IMG/VR virus record: IMGVR_UViG_2706794678_000007
Origin: a virus
Lineage: Duplodnaviria; Heunggongvirae; Uroviricota; Caudoviricetes
Strand: one strand, 5' to 3'
DNA: 30,068 nucleotides
The position numbers and the translations under genes were made by a program. The first letter of the stretch is position 1. The number at the start of each line of letters is the position of its first letter. Positions 2,526-8,747 of the stretch are shown piece after piece. Under the pieces are notes generated by a model. The model was given only the letters and a program-made list of their open reading frames with translations, was not told the origin of the DNA and searched no databases.

Positions 2526-3527
2526 ATGGATATTCGCACACGAAAGACAAAATTTTTAGAGTCGTTAGATTCAACTGAAGTGATACGCAAAGCAGTAAGT
2601 CTCGCTATAGATTGCATTATTGATAATCATAATAGTAATGAAGATACCCCCTTAGTTATTACCAGCTATGATGATCTCTGTAGAATCCAGGTGCTAAATT
2701 ATGTACAGGAGTTTTGCGAAGCTGCATTCCCTGATATGGATGAATATTACTTTAGTCCTAACATACTTCGCATCAACGGCAAGACTAGTGAAGAAGCTTG
2801 TATTAACTTAATTAAACTCTTAAGAAGTACAAAAGGCATGCTATTCTGGTCCGATGCCCCATCGTGGTTCGCTAGCCTCCCCGACGGATTATTCCATGTT
2901 GTTAACATTGATCAAAAAATCGTTACTCGCGGCCTTAATAAGAAAAACTCTAAGCCGACAATAATCAATAAAGATTACAGTGTAGATACACTACTATCAG
3001 AGCTATTTTTGAATGGCGCACACATGGAGCAACCCAACGTACACAACGTTTCTGAGGGAAACATGAAGTTCTATGATGAATGCCATGCTGGATTAATCAG
3101 ACCAATACCCGCTCCAATAGGCGCGTCATACGATGAAGAGATCACAATTAATTCTCCAGATTGGCAAAAGCTCGCGTGTGTAGCTTTACGCCGCTATCAG
3201 TCGAAGGAATGTCATGACGGAATGCAATGGGATACAACCGATCATGGTTGGACTGATGTAATCGCGTATCCATTCGTCGAAGAAATACAATCAATGGATA
3301 ATAGTGGTTATCGACAATGTTTAGTTGGGCTGGTCACAATAAACAATTCAAATGCAAATTCTCCGTACCTATCTACCGTTTGGATACATCCATTTTATCG
3401 CAGGAGAGGGTTATTAAGTAAGTTATGGCCAAAATTACAAGAGTTATATGGAAGTAACTTCGAAATTGAGCGACCTAATGAAAATATGAAAGCATTTCTG
3501 AAAAGTGCGAAACACGCAGATTACTAA
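2526..3527 (+). CDS. hypothetical protein, C-terminal region resembling a GNAT acetyltransferase core (…VWIHPFYRRRGLLSKLW…)
   Basis: ATG at 2526, 15 nt after the previous stop (operon-like). AT-rich codon usage like the upstream gene. C-terminal P-x3-R-x2-G-L-L-x2-L resembles GNAT motif A; pattern recognition only, not verified. Confidence 0.55.
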   Translation: MDIRTRKTKFLESLDSTEVIRKAVSLAIDCIIDNHNSNEDTPLVITSYDDLCRIQVLNYVQEFCEAAFPDMDEYYFSPNILRINGKTSEEACINLIKLLRSTKGMLFWSDAPSWFASLPDGLFHVVNIDQKIVTRGLNKKNSKPTIINKDYSVDTLLSELFLNGAHMEQPNVHNVSEGNMKFYDECHAGLIRPIPAPIGASYDEEITINSPDWQKLACVALRRYQSKECHDGMQWDTTDHGWTDVIAYPFVEEIQSMDNSGYRQCLVGLVTINNSNANSPYLSTVWIHPFYRRRGLLSKLWPKLQELYGSNFEIERPNENMKAFLKSAKHADY

Positions 3528-3710
3528 TTTATGAATCAGTCTGTGGAGTTAGGGTTGGTGTGAACAAGTAGGGTAAGAGCCTCAACGTGATGCTATGCCG
3601 ACCTGCTCCCTGAGAATTCACACAGAAGGCTGCTAGCAATGTCTGCAGATCGCTCAAAGCGGACTAAAATGTTGGCTTGTTTCTGACTTAGAGCATTTAA
3701 GGAAGTGCTG

Positions 3711-3929
3711 GTGGTGACTGGTTGTTGTGTTCCATTTCTACAGAATAAAATCACAGAAACTATACCCAATAGTTGTATTGAATCACTGACGAGACAGCCT
3801 CATATTTATCAGGACTGGTGTGCGTCTAATACAGGGGGTTGTCGTGCTGGTTCTCAAATGTGCGCTGGCTATTGCGGCTGTAATGGCAATTTATTGTCTT
3901 GCTGTTGTTCTTATGGAGCGGCTTTCTGA
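3711..3929 (+). CDS. possible small cysteine-rich protein (11 Cys in about 72 aa); uncertain
   Basis: ORF-track 3705..3929. AAGGA at 3700-3704 with GTG at 3711 gives the best spacing. No recognised homology. Confidence 0.2.
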   Translation: MVTGCCVPFLQNKITETIPNSCIESLTRQPHIYQDWCASNTGGCRAGSQMCAGYCGCNGNLLSCCCSYGAAF

Positions 3930-4081
3930 TTGATTACATACTGGCTAGAAAAAAGGTGTTACCTTGGTTTATCTTTGTCCGGCAAGGTGCGCTCATTAAT
4001 CTTAAGTAAATTTATTGCTCAAGTATTCAGATTACTTCTTATGGTTGAAGTCTCCTGTCAATGTAGAACCAATATATTTAC

Positions 4082-4118
4082 AAAAATGAGACCCGTCGGG
4101 GATAGCCCTGCCGGGTCT
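4082..4118 (-). terminator. rho-independent terminator for the minus-strand yeaR-like gene
   Basis: Stem AGACCCG (4089-4095) / CGGGTCT (4112-4118); on the minus strand the hairpin is followed by a T-run (reverse complement of 4082-4088). Lies about 30 nt past the stop at 4148. Confidence 0.45.
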
Positions 4119-4147
4119 GACTGTTAAAGCATTTTTAATATGATCAT

Positions 4148-4486
4148 CTATTTTTTGGTGCTATAGACTTTTTCGCCCGAAAAGTCTGGAGCGACCCAAA
4201 AGTTAATATTAAACTGAGCATCATCGCTTAGTTCAACACGGTGCCAGTATTGTGGTGGGCTTGTTGCAAAAGCGCCAGCATTAATGACTACTTTTATCTC
4301 CGGTTCAGTAGCATTCTCATCAGTAAAACCATAATATGTTACAGTGCCTTCCATTACGCACAACTGCCCAAAAACACCTGCTGCTGTATTATGATGTGTT
4401 AATAACGCTGAAGGTACGTTCTCTTTTGTGAAGAACGGAGTTGAGCGTTTGATTACCCAATCTTTAGGAATTCTCTTGTGTGTCAT
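4148..4486 (-). CDS. DUF1971 family protein, YeaR-like
   Basis: Minus-strand ORF-track 4148..4510. Start trimmed to the ATG at 4486, which has SD GGAGGAGG (reverse complement of 4491-4498). Length about 112 aa and motifs (RSTPFF…, FNINFWVAP) resemble E. coli YeaR as I remember it. Confidence 0.75.
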   Translation of the reverse strand: MTHKRIPKDWVIKRSTPFFTKENVPSALLTHHNTAAGVFGQLCVMEGTVTYYGFTDENATEPEIKVVINAGAFATSPPQYWHRVELSDDAQFNINFWVAPDFSGEKVYSTKK

Positions 4487-4501
4487 AACCACCTCCTCCA
4501 A

Positions 4502-4524
4502 AACATGCATTAAAAATGCATCTT
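4502..4524 (-). promoter_or_regulatory. candidate NsrR operator (11-1-11 inverted repeat) in the yeaR-like promoter
   Basis: AACATGCATTA-A-AAATGCATCTT closely matches the NsrR consensus AAnATGCATTT-n-AAATGCATnTT. Sits 16-38 nt upstream of the start codon; a TTGACA -35 on the minus strand lies at 4536-4541. Confidence 0.5.
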
Positions 4525-5299
4525 TTGGAGGGTTATGTCAAGCTGTTATGAAACACATAATTGATATGTTGATTAGAGGAGAAGATAGAATAAATATGGT
4601 TGTTTTTCGTATAACTATTTGTTTTACTTTTAGTTTATGCATTCTGTGTGTTAGGAATAAGTTATTAAAGTTTAATCAAAAAATCTCGATGTAGTCCACA
4701 TAGATTACTGTTACTGAACCTTATTGTGTGTATTAGTTGTGTTCTGAAATTTCAGCTTAATTATTTATGATGTATTTTTTAACGATAAATATTTTCCCAG
4801 GATACCTTTACTGTGTATATAAATAAATTATATACGCATAAATAATGTAAAGGCGTCCTTTTAGATATATCTTATCAAATGTTAATGACTTGAGTGGGAA
4901 ATATGATTCCAGCAACTTATCATGTGGCTACTTTATAAAAATAATGCCCATATAAAACAACAAGCGAAAAGGATTACGGATAAAAAAGGAGCGAGATGTG
5001 CGAACTTGTTATTTTCCATGTTTAACCACCTTAAATAATTGATGATGACGGGATGATTGCATCTGTAATGCTTTTATTGAAATGTTATGATAAAAAAGAA
5101 CTTTTGCATAACATTAAAATGTAATTTATCTAATCGTTTTTAATAATAAGTGTCGTATTTCTATCCTTGTACCAGCTATTTGATATGTAGTGTTTGTTCA
5201 TGCTATGTGGGGCTTTACACCATAGCCAGTTTATTTATACTTTATTCGTCAGCCTGAACAACTGGCATCTGCTGCGCTGCGCCATCGAGAGATTGAGAA

Positions 5300-5899
5300 A
5301 TGGCGCATATACAACTGGTCAAACAAACCTCTTCTGGTTTACTTCTCCCGGCGACGCCGGAGAGTTGCGATTTTCTGCATCAAATCAAAATAGGTGAGTG
5401 GATACACGCAGACTTTAAGCGTGTGCGTAACTACGCATTCCACAAGCGTTTTTTCAAACTCCTGCAACTGGGATTCGATTACTGGACTCCGGTCGGTGGG
5501 GCGATCACGCCTCGCGAACGAGAACTGCTGTCTGGTTTCGTTGATTACCTGTGCGAATCAGTTGGTCGGGAACACACGCCAGCCCTGAGTGATGCCGCAG
5601 AGCAATACCTTAACACCGTTGCGACTCGTAGAACCCGGGATACGGCGTTGCTAAAGTCGTTTGAGGCTTTCCGCGAGTGGGTAACCATTCAGGCCGGATT
5701 TTACACCGAGCATATTTATCCGGACGGTAGCCGTGGGCGTCGGGCAAAATCCATCGCTTTTGCGAATATGGACGAAGTCGAGTTTCAGCAGGTTTATAAA
5801 TCTGTACTGAATGTGCTGTGGAACTGGATTCTGTTCCGTAAATTCTCCTCTCAGGAGGAAGTTGAAAATGTGGCCGCACAACTACTGGAGTTTGCGTAA
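5300..5899 (+). CDS. nin-region protein, DUF1367-like (YbcN-like)
   Basis: ORF 5300..5899, immediately upstream of the YbcO-like gene and Q, matching nin-region order in lambdoid prophages. Family assignment from memory. Confidence 0.65.
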   Translation: MAHIQLVKQTSSGLLLPATPESCDFLHQIKIGEWIHADFKRVRNYAFHKRFFKLLQLGFDYWTPVGGAITPRERELLSGFVDYLCESVGREHTPALSDAAEQYLNTVATRRTRDTALLKSFEAFREWVTIQAGFYTEHIYPDGSRGRRAKSIAFANMDEVEFQQVYKSVLNVLWNWILFRKFSSQEEVENVAAQLLEFA

Positions 5900-7772: not shown

Positions 7773-8201
7773 ATGGGTTTTCGTAGCGCATCAATTCTTA
7801 CGTTGATTATTAGTGGGATTATTATCGGGTGCACTGATGCTGTATCGACAAATTATCATGACCGTACATCATATTACTCCGATAAAGCAATAGAGACACA
7901 GTATGTGAGTTCATCTGAACGTACTTCTGATGTTAGTGAGGATATCCGTCTGTATGCCCATCAAATCAAGAGCGCCATCGAAAAACAGTTCGGGGATGCG
8001 AGTAAGTATTCAGGAAAAGAGTGTACACTGAGAATGCATATGGCCCCGAATGGCCTTCTACTGGAGGTTAAAAGAGAAAGTGGAGACCTCGATTTATGTC
8101 GTGAAGCGATGAATGCGATAAAGAATGCTGATATACCTGCCCCCCCTTCGCCGGAAGTATATAAAGTATTTCAAAATGGGGTGCTGGATTTTAAACCCTG
8201 A
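7773..8201 (+). CDS. lipoprotein with TolA C-terminal (domain III)-like domain
   Basis: Signal peptide plus lipobox (IIIGC). C-terminal …YAHQIKSAIEKQFGDASKYSGKECTLRMHMAPNGLLLEVK…PPSPEVYKVFQNGVLDFKP closely parallels E. coli TolA domain III (…CTLRIKLAPDG…PPSQAVYEVFKNAPLDFKP, from memory). Confidence 0.8.
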   Translation: MGFRSASILTLIISGIIIGCTDAVSTNYHDRTSYYSDKAIETQYVSSSERTSDVSEDIRLYAHQIKSAIEKQFGDASKYSGKECTLRMHMAPNGLLLEVKRESGDLDLCREAMNAIKNADIPAPPSPEVYKVFQNGVLDFKP

Positions 8202-8351: not shown

Positions 8352-8747
8352 GTGGGATTAAAGAAAATCGTTATGTTGACTTTTTGGGTCGGTTTTGTTG
8401 CGGGATGCACACCTTTACACCCTTCAGATTGCCACAAAACTACTGCTACAGGTAGTTGCAGTTCAGGACGCTGGGATGATCAGGATGAATGGGGGGCGCA
8501 AGCGCGGGGAATCAGAGCTGCAATTAATGCCAAACTTGATGAGCCGCATAACTGGAAAGGGAAAAAATGCAGGTTGCATATGGAATTCTCTCAGGATGGC
8601 ACGGCGTTAAAAATATCTACCAGTAACGGTGATAAAGCCTATTGCGAAGCGATAAAGTCCGCAGCTCATAAAGCCAAATTTCCGGCCTTCAACAATCCGG
8701 AAGTCTACAGAGATTTTCAGAAATCTGGCTTTGACATGCGAGGTTAG
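8352..8747 (+). CDS. lipoprotein, paralog of the upstream gene, TolA domain III-like
   Basis: GTG at 8352 with GAGGAG at 8340-8345 (6-nt spacer). Lipobox (VAGC). C-terminal KKCRLHMEFSQDGTALKIS…NNPEVYRDFQKSGFDM aligns with the upstream protein and with the TolA III pattern. Confidence 0.75.
   Translation: MGLKKIVMLTFWVGFVAGCTPLHPSDCHKTTATGSCSSGRWDDQDEWGAQARGIRAAINAKLDEPHNWKGKKCRLHMEFSQDGTALKISTSNGDKAYCEAIKSAAHKAKFPAFNNPEVYRDFQKSGFDMRG

Follow-up and report, generated by a model that had tools for sequence, protein, structure and literature searches.

An STM1808-type DUF1971 gene with a predicted NsrR operator, carried as a cassette on Rac-type lambdoid prophages of Escherichia coli

The window analysed here, the whole 30,068-nucleotide (nt) stretch of the viral record IMGVR_UViG_2706794678_000007, contains a single gene on its minus strand, at 4148–4486, with an inverted repeat shortly before its start codon. 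The locus raises the question of what this gene encodes, what controls it within a prophage, and where gene and control site came from. The reading reached below is that the repeat very probably belongs to a portable, activator-independent promoter that would be repressed by the host regulator NsrR, released by nitric oxide (NO), and would drive a DUF1971 gene of the STM1808 type from an otherwise silent prophage. An earlier note on this DNA had described the gene as the only one on the minus strand of the window, which agrees with the RefSeq annotation of NCTC10444, where the DUF1971 gene is the only minus-strand coding sequence (CDS) in the span of the window. Positions refer to the window throughout, and the gene itself is delimited as follows.

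4148–4486, minus strand: CDS of a DUF1971 protein of the STM1808 / V. fischeri 3DL3 type, 112 amino acids (aa), from Pfam PF09313 and the limits of RefSeq WP_000149055.1

The start codon ATG of the DUF1971 gene lies at 4486–4484 and the stop codon TAG at 4150–4148. A mechanically called open reading frame (ORF) of 120 aa opens at an ATG at 4510, inside the predicted operator, and this start was rejected in favour of 4486 because RefSeq annotates the same sequence as 339 nt (WP_000149055.1, with limits identical to 4148–4486), all orthologues open with Met-(Ser/Thr)-His, the N-terminus of every orthologue aligned, and a Shine-Dalgarno run precedes 4486. PF09313 carries the domain label TehB N-terminal / YeaR fold. 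Membership was assigned on a profile match above the gathering threshold that covers the whole domain, and the ORF matched profile positions 1–80 of 80 at 91.9 bits (cutoff 23.1; E value 2.6e-26), upholding the DUF1971 assignment made earlier from the letters of the sequence. Structural matches of the window protein in the Protein Data Bank (PDB) were 3DL3 (200 bits), a structural-genomics entry titled ‘tellurite resistance protein B’, 3BB6 (YeaR, 89 bits) and 3M70 (H. influenzae TehB, 46 bits). The protein is 79–82% identical to chromosomal DUF1971 proteins of Kluyvera, Leclercia, Citrobacter, Klebsiella, Raoultella, Salmonella, Vibrio, Aliivibrio and Shewanella, and the residues H3, H31, H32 and H82 are invariant in an alignment of 17 family members, window protein included. 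In STM1808, H32 and H82 are reportedly the zinc-binding residues needed for function. These matches identify the product as a small DUF1971 protein, cupin-like and belonging to the STM1808 family. Among 8 alleles from 40 loci the ratio of non-synonymous to synonymous polymorphism (pN/pS) is ~0.15 with zero internal stops; the prophage gene is intact and under purifying selection. A PADLOC search for anti-phage defence returned no match for the gene or its two left neighbours, and a PHROGs search of the gene and its left neighbours returned families of unknown function only.

The control region upstream of the gene comprises four elements, all on the minus strand.

4502–4524, minus strand: predicted NsrR operator, an 11-1-11 inverted repeat of 23 base pairs (bp), from the matrix match and the palindrome match
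4536–4541, minus strand: −35 hexamer TTGACA, a 6/6 match by direct reading, invariant in all prophage alleles
4513–4518, minus strand: inferred −10 hexamer CATTTT, which is box positions 7–12, 17 bp downstream of TTGACA
4491–4499, minus strand: Shine-Dalgarno run GGAGGAGGT by direct reading, ending 4 nt before the ATG

Read along the gene strand, TTGACA (4541–4536) is followed by 11 nt, the box (4524–4502), 15 nt and the ATG. The box is AACATGCATTAAAAATGCATCTT on the plus strand at 4502–4524 and AAGATGCATTT-T-TAATGCATGTT on the gene strand. Direct reading bore out the positions given previously for the repeat and the −35 hexamer, and the presence of a Shine-Dalgarno run before the ATG; the GAGGTGG / GGGGTGG part of this run is constant in all alleles. 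To score the box, a palindromic NsrR matrix was derived from the 19 sites in Table 4 of a chromatin immunoprecipitation sequencing (ChIP-seq) study of strain CFT073 (PMC5320621), each of them either ChIP-positive or independently known. The box scored 25.97 bits with an exact tail P of 2–4e-10 per position and has two mismatches to the ytfE palindrome, in keeping with the previous description of an 11-1-11 repeat close to the NsrR consensus. In the matrix scan of the 30-kb window that the earlier note had proposed, the box was the top site and the runner-up reached 14.7 bits. Only ytfE (30.06 bits) among the published CFT073 sites lies above it, although the published sites were scored in-sample, as were the validated CFT073 sites, which range from 13 to 30 bits. 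A search for the perfect ytfE palindrome with at most 3 mismatches gave one match in the window (2 mismatches) and none in 100 shuffles. A chance origin of the box is excluded.

Given that the box covers the putative −10 hexamer and the expected start (about 4504–4508), bound NsrR would adopt a classical repression geometry. The proposed sequence of events is as follows. Transcription would run leftward, against the phage early-right genes, from the gene's own sigma-70 promoter (TTGACA, 17 bp, CATTTT). In unstressed lysogens the host iron-sulfur repressor NsrR would occupy the 23-bp repeat, cover the −10 hexamer and the expected start, and hold the promoter off. NO, arising from host cells or from nitrate/nitrite respiration, would nitrosylate the NsrR cluster and bring NsrR off the DNA, and the gene would then be expressed alongside hmp, ytfE, hcp and yeaR. 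With a −35 hexamer of consensus sequence a host activator should be dispensable, and the cassette would therefore work in any NsrR-bearing enterobacterium. By eye and without a matrix scan, nothing convincing was seen upstream of the gene for NarL, FNR, Fur, IscR or ArgR. From this arrangement we infer that NsrR binds at the prophage locus, where transcription starts, that NO induces the gene and that a fitness benefit follows; the last of these is suggested by the analogy with STM1808. The locus is not among the entries of Tables 2 and 4 of the CFT073 NsrR ChIP-seq study (PMC5320621).

The gene had previously been taken for a prophage copy of yeaR that kept the yeaR operator. This identification was rejected, given 41% identity to K-12 YeaR, a different box sequence and position, and the lack of yoaG; instead the protein is 79–82% identical to the STM1808-type family, with the Salmonella orthologue at 79%. 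The Salmonella member directly follows nhaB-dsbB, and as dsbB is STM1807 it therefore occupies the STM1808 position; from gene order we take STM1808 to be its locus tag. By its sequence the prophage gene is assigned to the STM1808 subfamily, closer to the Salmonella gene downstream of dsbB than to YeaR. In two papers (PMC7527575 and PMC7082413, both citing Karlinsey et al. 2012, Mol Microbiol 85:1179) STM1808 is given as a member of the NsrR regulon with a role in Salmonella virulence. The prophage gene and STM1808 share the protein subfamily, an NsrR box shortly before the ATG and a −10-like hexamer overlapping it. They differ in setting, as STM1808 is a core chromosomal gene beside nhaB-dsbB, whereas the window gene is on a lambdoid prophage of a species without this family in its core genome. 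The Salmonella box (subsp. diarizonae) is also weaker, at 19.7 bits compared with 26 in the window, lies 27 rather than 15 nt from the ATG, and is preceded by a TTGTTT −35 in place of the consensus TTGACA.

Likeness to yeaR-yoaG extends to the DUF1971 fold family (seen in the 3BB6 match) and to yeaR being an NsrR target. However, the yeaR box (AAATGGTATTTAAAATGCAAATT) differs in sequence from the window box and is 56 nt rather than 15 nt from the ATG. Among the window ORFs there is no yoaG-like minus-strand ORF downstream of 4148. NO derived from nitrate induces yeaR 160-fold in CFT073 (PMC5320621). Activation of yeaR requires NarL (Lin et al. 2007, cited in PMC5320621); the prophage promoter, by contrast, is equipped with a −35 of consensus sequence. 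NsrR control of DUF1971 genes, namely yeaR and STM1808, is already known. The closest relatives are the chromosomal DUF1971 loci of Kluyvera, Leclercia and Pseudescherichia, with 80–82% protein and 72–75% nucleotide identity and a spacing nearly that of the window (−35, 11 nt, box, 16–18 nt, ATG); they differ in being chromosomal, in having TTTACA/TATTTT promoters and in showing no similarity upstream of the box.

Conservation of the box was assessed in one genome per species, using the 80 loci most similar to the family, 79 of them non-prophage. A box was counted at 15 bits or more within 200 nt upstream of the ATG, and equal-length stretches downstream of the gene served as controls. The box was present in 53 of the 80 loci (one being a Shigella prophage copy) and in 0 of the 80 controls. 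In the non-prophage set, 52 of 79 loci have a strong box 15–43 nt before the ATG, the distance being 15–27 nt in all but one. Within the Enterobacteriaceae the box lies 15–27 nt from the ATG in every locus but one, despite diverged surroundings, and the exception, in Leclercia adecarboxylata (locus L048), has 11.3 bits at the same position. All 52 boxed chromosomal promoters carry a TTGACA-like hexamer (TTTACA, TTGACG or TTGCCT at the equivalent of the −35) 17–18 bp, or 16 in one case, upstream of box positions 7–12, which read TATTTT, TATATT or CATATT. The layout of the window, TTGACA, 17 bp and CATTTT, is the same arrangement. Nucleotide similarity to the Kluyvera, Leclercia and Pseudescherichia loci (72–75%) runs from the box edge at 4525–4527 to the stop codon, and in other clades the alignment with the cassette is limited to the coding region. 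Because the similarity begins at the box edge, the gene was most likely acquired from an enterobacterial chromosome in one piece with its 5′ untranslated region (UTR) and operator; at ~73% nucleotide identity, no sampled species is the direct donor.

These chromosomal loci also bear on whether the repeat could be the operator of another dimeric regulator, either phage-encoded or a different host Rrf2-type protein. Palindromic operators are common on phages, and the operator varies among prophage alleles as immunity-type operators do. Yet the same box precedes chromosomal orthologues where the genome lacks this phage, it is two mismatches from ytfE, the strongest known NsrR site, and by eye it is unlike the IscR type-1, Fur, ArgR and FNR consensus sequences. 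The Salmonella orthologue is also reported as NsrR-regulated in the papers cited above (PMC7527575, PMC7082413). A regulator other than NsrR is accordingly regarded as very improbable.

Several observations weigh against NsrR control of this promoter. The −10 hexamer CATTTT is only a 3/6 match, and the promoter was not called by a consensus scanner. Most Vibrionaceae orthologues have no box within 200 nt of the ATG, and NsrR control is therefore not universal in the STM1808 family. In the commonest IMG/VR allele the box is weaker, at 20 bits; its T5, a position that is usually conserved, is replaced by C, and the −10 reads CATTTA. The operator is, moreover, the most variable part of the cassette, with 18 of 40 positions segregating between −45 and −7 (4493–4530) compared with 57 of 605 elsewhere in the cassette (Fisher P 3e-8) and an almost invariant CDS next to it, and taken alone this variability could be a sign of relaxed constraint. 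Lastly, the palindrome at the site exceeds what NsrR needs and its outer arms covary, and another factor may act there besides NsrR. As to the Vibrionaceae, the NsrR wiring of the family appears, from the loci compared, to be largely confined to the Enterobacteriaceae. The Vibrio, Aliivibrio and Photobacterium orthologues, 75–80% identical to the window protein, are mostly boxless (L069, L074, L082, L091, L097, L107 and other Vibrionaceae loci), and the boxed exceptions are Photobacterium sp. OFAV2-7 and P. damselae.

The variability of the operator was followed by comparing alleles. All 14 prophage alleles have the box at the same position, with scores of 17.9–27 bits, and the box positions AA, GCATT, TAAT, CAT and TT are invariant. 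Substitutions within the box fall on positions of low information in the NsrR matrix (mean 0.48 vs 0.79 bits, P 0.024). Alleles that are 1 nt apart over 339 coding nt differ at 5 of ~41 operator positions. This pattern fits a functional site with permissive positions, and flanks that are drifting or tuned. The locus could also be read as a decaying relic, brought in by recombination and since left without function or selection in E. coli. Defects are frequent in Rac prophages and substitutions do accumulate in the operator region, but 453 of 457 genomes have an unbroken CDS, pN/pS is ~0.15, the NsrR-critical positions are invariant across alleles, and the cassette is kept where Rac structural genes have been deleted; decay is given very little credence. 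The natural operator alleles, from 18 to 27 bits, form a ready series for relating NsrR affinity to induction threshold.

Symmetry at the site extends beyond the box.

4495–4531, no strand assigned: extended palindrome of 37 bp, CCTCCAAAAGATGCATT-TTT-AATGCATGTTTTGGAGG, centred on the NsrR box, from RNA folding and allele comparison

A hairpin is predicted for 4484–4537 in which CAUAACC pairs with GGUUAUG, start codon included, and the minimum free energy of the RNA is −26.5 kcal/mol for the sense strand (z −5.6) and −25.4 kcal/mol for the antisense strand (z −6.0). Among prophage alleles the outer arms are CCTCC/GGAGG, CCTCA/TGAGG or CATCA/TGATG, and one-sided intermediates occur too. In the Citrobacter, Yokenella and Salmonella orthologues the 23-bp core has 0 double changes, and 7 of 10 outer pairs are changed on both sides; over the whole structure this amounts to 7 double changes vs 2.1 in shuffles, of which 0 of 500 reach 7, and slid controls give 0–3. 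The core is thus kept in sequence, as a site recognised by a protein would be, and the flanks only in complementarity. In Citrobacter, Yokenella, Raoultella and the prophage, the box sits within perfect palindromes of up to ~40 bp whose arms differ by species yet remain complementary (L064–L098, at about 2434–2490 in each locus, L111, L118, and 4495–4531 of the window). In Kluyvera, Klebsiella and many other orthologues the extension is slight or nil.

Such a structure allows the palindrome to be read primarily as a nucleic-acid element, either a DNA cruciform or an RNA hairpin by which read-through or antisense transcripts would conceal the ribosome-binding site (RBS) and start codon, with the likeness to NsrR sites secondary. 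The symmetry at 4495–4531 and the hairpin at 4484–4537 reach well beyond 23 bp, pair the start codon and have z-scores of −5.6 and −6.0, and outer-arm changes are paired both in prophage alleles and, at 7 of 10 outer pairs, in Citrobacter-type orthologues. Set against this, the inner 23 bp are kept in sequence without a double change and match the NsrR matrix in ~50 species with unrelated arms, the extension is slight or lacking in many orthologues such as those of Kluyvera and Klebsiella, and the gene's own messenger RNA cannot form the hairpin, whose left arm precedes the predicted start. There is likewise no promoter-like site on the minus strand upstream that would transcribe the whole palindrome, at the threshold of the scanner, and no U-run after the hairpin on either strand. 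A primarily structural role is for these reasons considered improbable, though the element could form an added layer and not a replacement for NsrR control. A strand-specific RNA hairpin was rejected as a candidate after the 14 alleles were folded on both strands and gave no consistent sense or antisense bias; selection at the RNA level is therefore not supported. An Rfam search of 3500–5400 gave only a meaningless sub-threshold microRNA match to the hairpin. Together, the three alternatives (structural element, other regulator, relic) are unlikely, and repression by host NsrR remains the preferred reading of the site.

The candidate explanations for the palindrome are templated quasipalindrome ‘correction’ in replication, a contribution of DNA structure to the binding of NsrR, or hairpin formation by transcripts that are antisense or read through the site. 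The box also lies in the path of phage early-right transcription, upstream of the antiterminator Q. It is rather unlikely, though conceivable, that a second layer of control exists, be it through hairpin formation in DNA or RNA (for example NsrR binding aided by a cruciform, or masking of the RBS and start codon in read-through transcripts) or through an NsrR roadblock or NO-induced convergent transcription that would couple NO sensing to the phage late genes. The covarying arms leave a small puzzle, operator architecture or palindrome-driven mutation, and together with the operator hotspot they are the most unusual aspects of the locus.

The setting of the gene was determined from chromosomal and phage copies. 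NCTC10444, which is 99.9% identical to the window, carries a Rac-type lambdoid prophage at ttcA, and the window spans it from ydaV to the tail genes. In four of four E. coli chromosomes inspected the gene is in Rac at ttcA, two of these prophages being decayed remnants, and it is also present in three isolated phages and 37 IMG/VR contigs. Carriers make up 457 of 5426 complete E. coli genomes (~8%), all at 95% nucleotide identity or more, and the CDS is intact in 453 of the 457 (at least 80% coverage and at least 95% identity). Distant blastn searches of the same 5426 genomes found prophage alleles only and no core copy below 95% identity; E. coli therefore lacks a core copy of the STM1808 family. 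What the copies share is a defined segment.

4148–4791 (about), minus strand: conserved mobile cassette of ~640 bp, −305 to +339 from the ATG, common to all prophage and phage copies

Among 29 distinct alleles, pairwise diversity is 0–0.07 within the cassette, 0.12–0.15 in the operator bins from −45 to −7, and 0.17–0.27 outside. Both flanks are mosaic, and phage matches end at position 4147. The gene lies between replication or variable cargo genes and the DUF1367-YbcO-Q module of Rac-type prophages; left neighbours vary among copies, and on the right there is invariably a gene of DUF1367 or Gifsy-2 type, with YbcO and Q after it. Its orientation is opposite to that of all neighbouring phage genes. 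The earlier proposal of a prophage cargo gene (moron) in its own orientation is sustained by the position in Rac at ttcA, the opposed neighbours and the mosaic flanks, and the sequence comparison identifies the DUF1971 cassette as a moron, probably self-contained, that lies within the nin region in lambdoid prophages of the Rac type. Decayed Rac remnants without structural genes retain the cassette, and its presumably NO-responsive cargo is a possible reason for their keeping this segment.

Prophage morons under host regulators are classically exemplified by lambda bor/lom, the Fur-controlled stx1 and the PhoPQ-controlled sodCI of Gifsy-2. The DUF1971 cassette resembles them as a probably independent unit between conserved phage modules, which should be expressible from a repressed prophage and is apparently wired to a host stress or virulence regulator, and differs in that a bacterial chromosome appears to have supplied gene and operator jointly. 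A literature search of limited reach found no earlier description of an NsrR-wired prophage moron or of this prophage gene, nor any ChIP, EMSA or expression result for the locus, and a plasma-stress transcriptome preprint listed the usual NsrR targets only. If the assignment holds, a regulon would have grown here by horizontal transfer of a ready-wired unit, in which a temperate phage carries gene, promoter and an operator for a conserved host sensor. About 8% of E. coli strains would thereby gain an NO-stress gene that is core in Salmonella, Citrobacter and Klebsiella and linked to Salmonella virulence. As a strain-variable addition to the E. coli NsrR regulon, it would be invisible to studies based on K-12 and CFT073.

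The 3′ end of the gene is less well defined.

4081–4118, minus strand: terminator-like hairpin (4089–4118) followed by CAUUUUUG (4081–4088), RNA fold −19.4 kcal/mol, z −1.9

This hairpin begins ~30 nt past the stop codon and was not called by the scanner, its loop being too long; it is a weak part of the description because the 3′ flank is not conserved among alleles. On the plus strand, terminator-like hairpins with T-runs lie at 3868–3887 and 3904–3922, just before the 3′ end of the minus-strand gene, and could shield the moron from antisense early-right transcription. At the other end, 4542–5299 is a 758-bp AT-rich (30.5% GC) non-coding gap between the moron promoter and the DUF1367 gene, the first ~250 bp of which travel with the cassette; it contains a strong promoter-like site, TTTACA-16-TATACT, at 5214–5241 on the plus strand.

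Other cargo is found in and around the same prophages. To the left of the cassette, two adjacent plus-strand genes at 1419–2510 and 2526–3527 encode proteins of 363 and 333 aa, for which Pfam gave sub-threshold matches only (a HEPN/RES N-terminal domain and a GNAT domain), PHROGs gave families of unknown function and PADLOC gave none; other Rac copies and phage 666R9 have unrelated genes in this place. Loci L121 (22311–23768), L122 and L123 show that the same Rac prophages carry a trkG potassium-transporter moron and that decayed remnants retain the DUF1971 cassette, and in strain CM2010-0578/1 a sitAB fragment abuts a truncated terminase gene. Further to the right in the window, between antiterminator Q and the lysis genes, plus-strand tandem paralogues at 7773–8201 and 8352–8747 resemble the TolA C-terminal domain (phrog_5772), and their products may be phage-encoded Tol decoys or exclusion factors.

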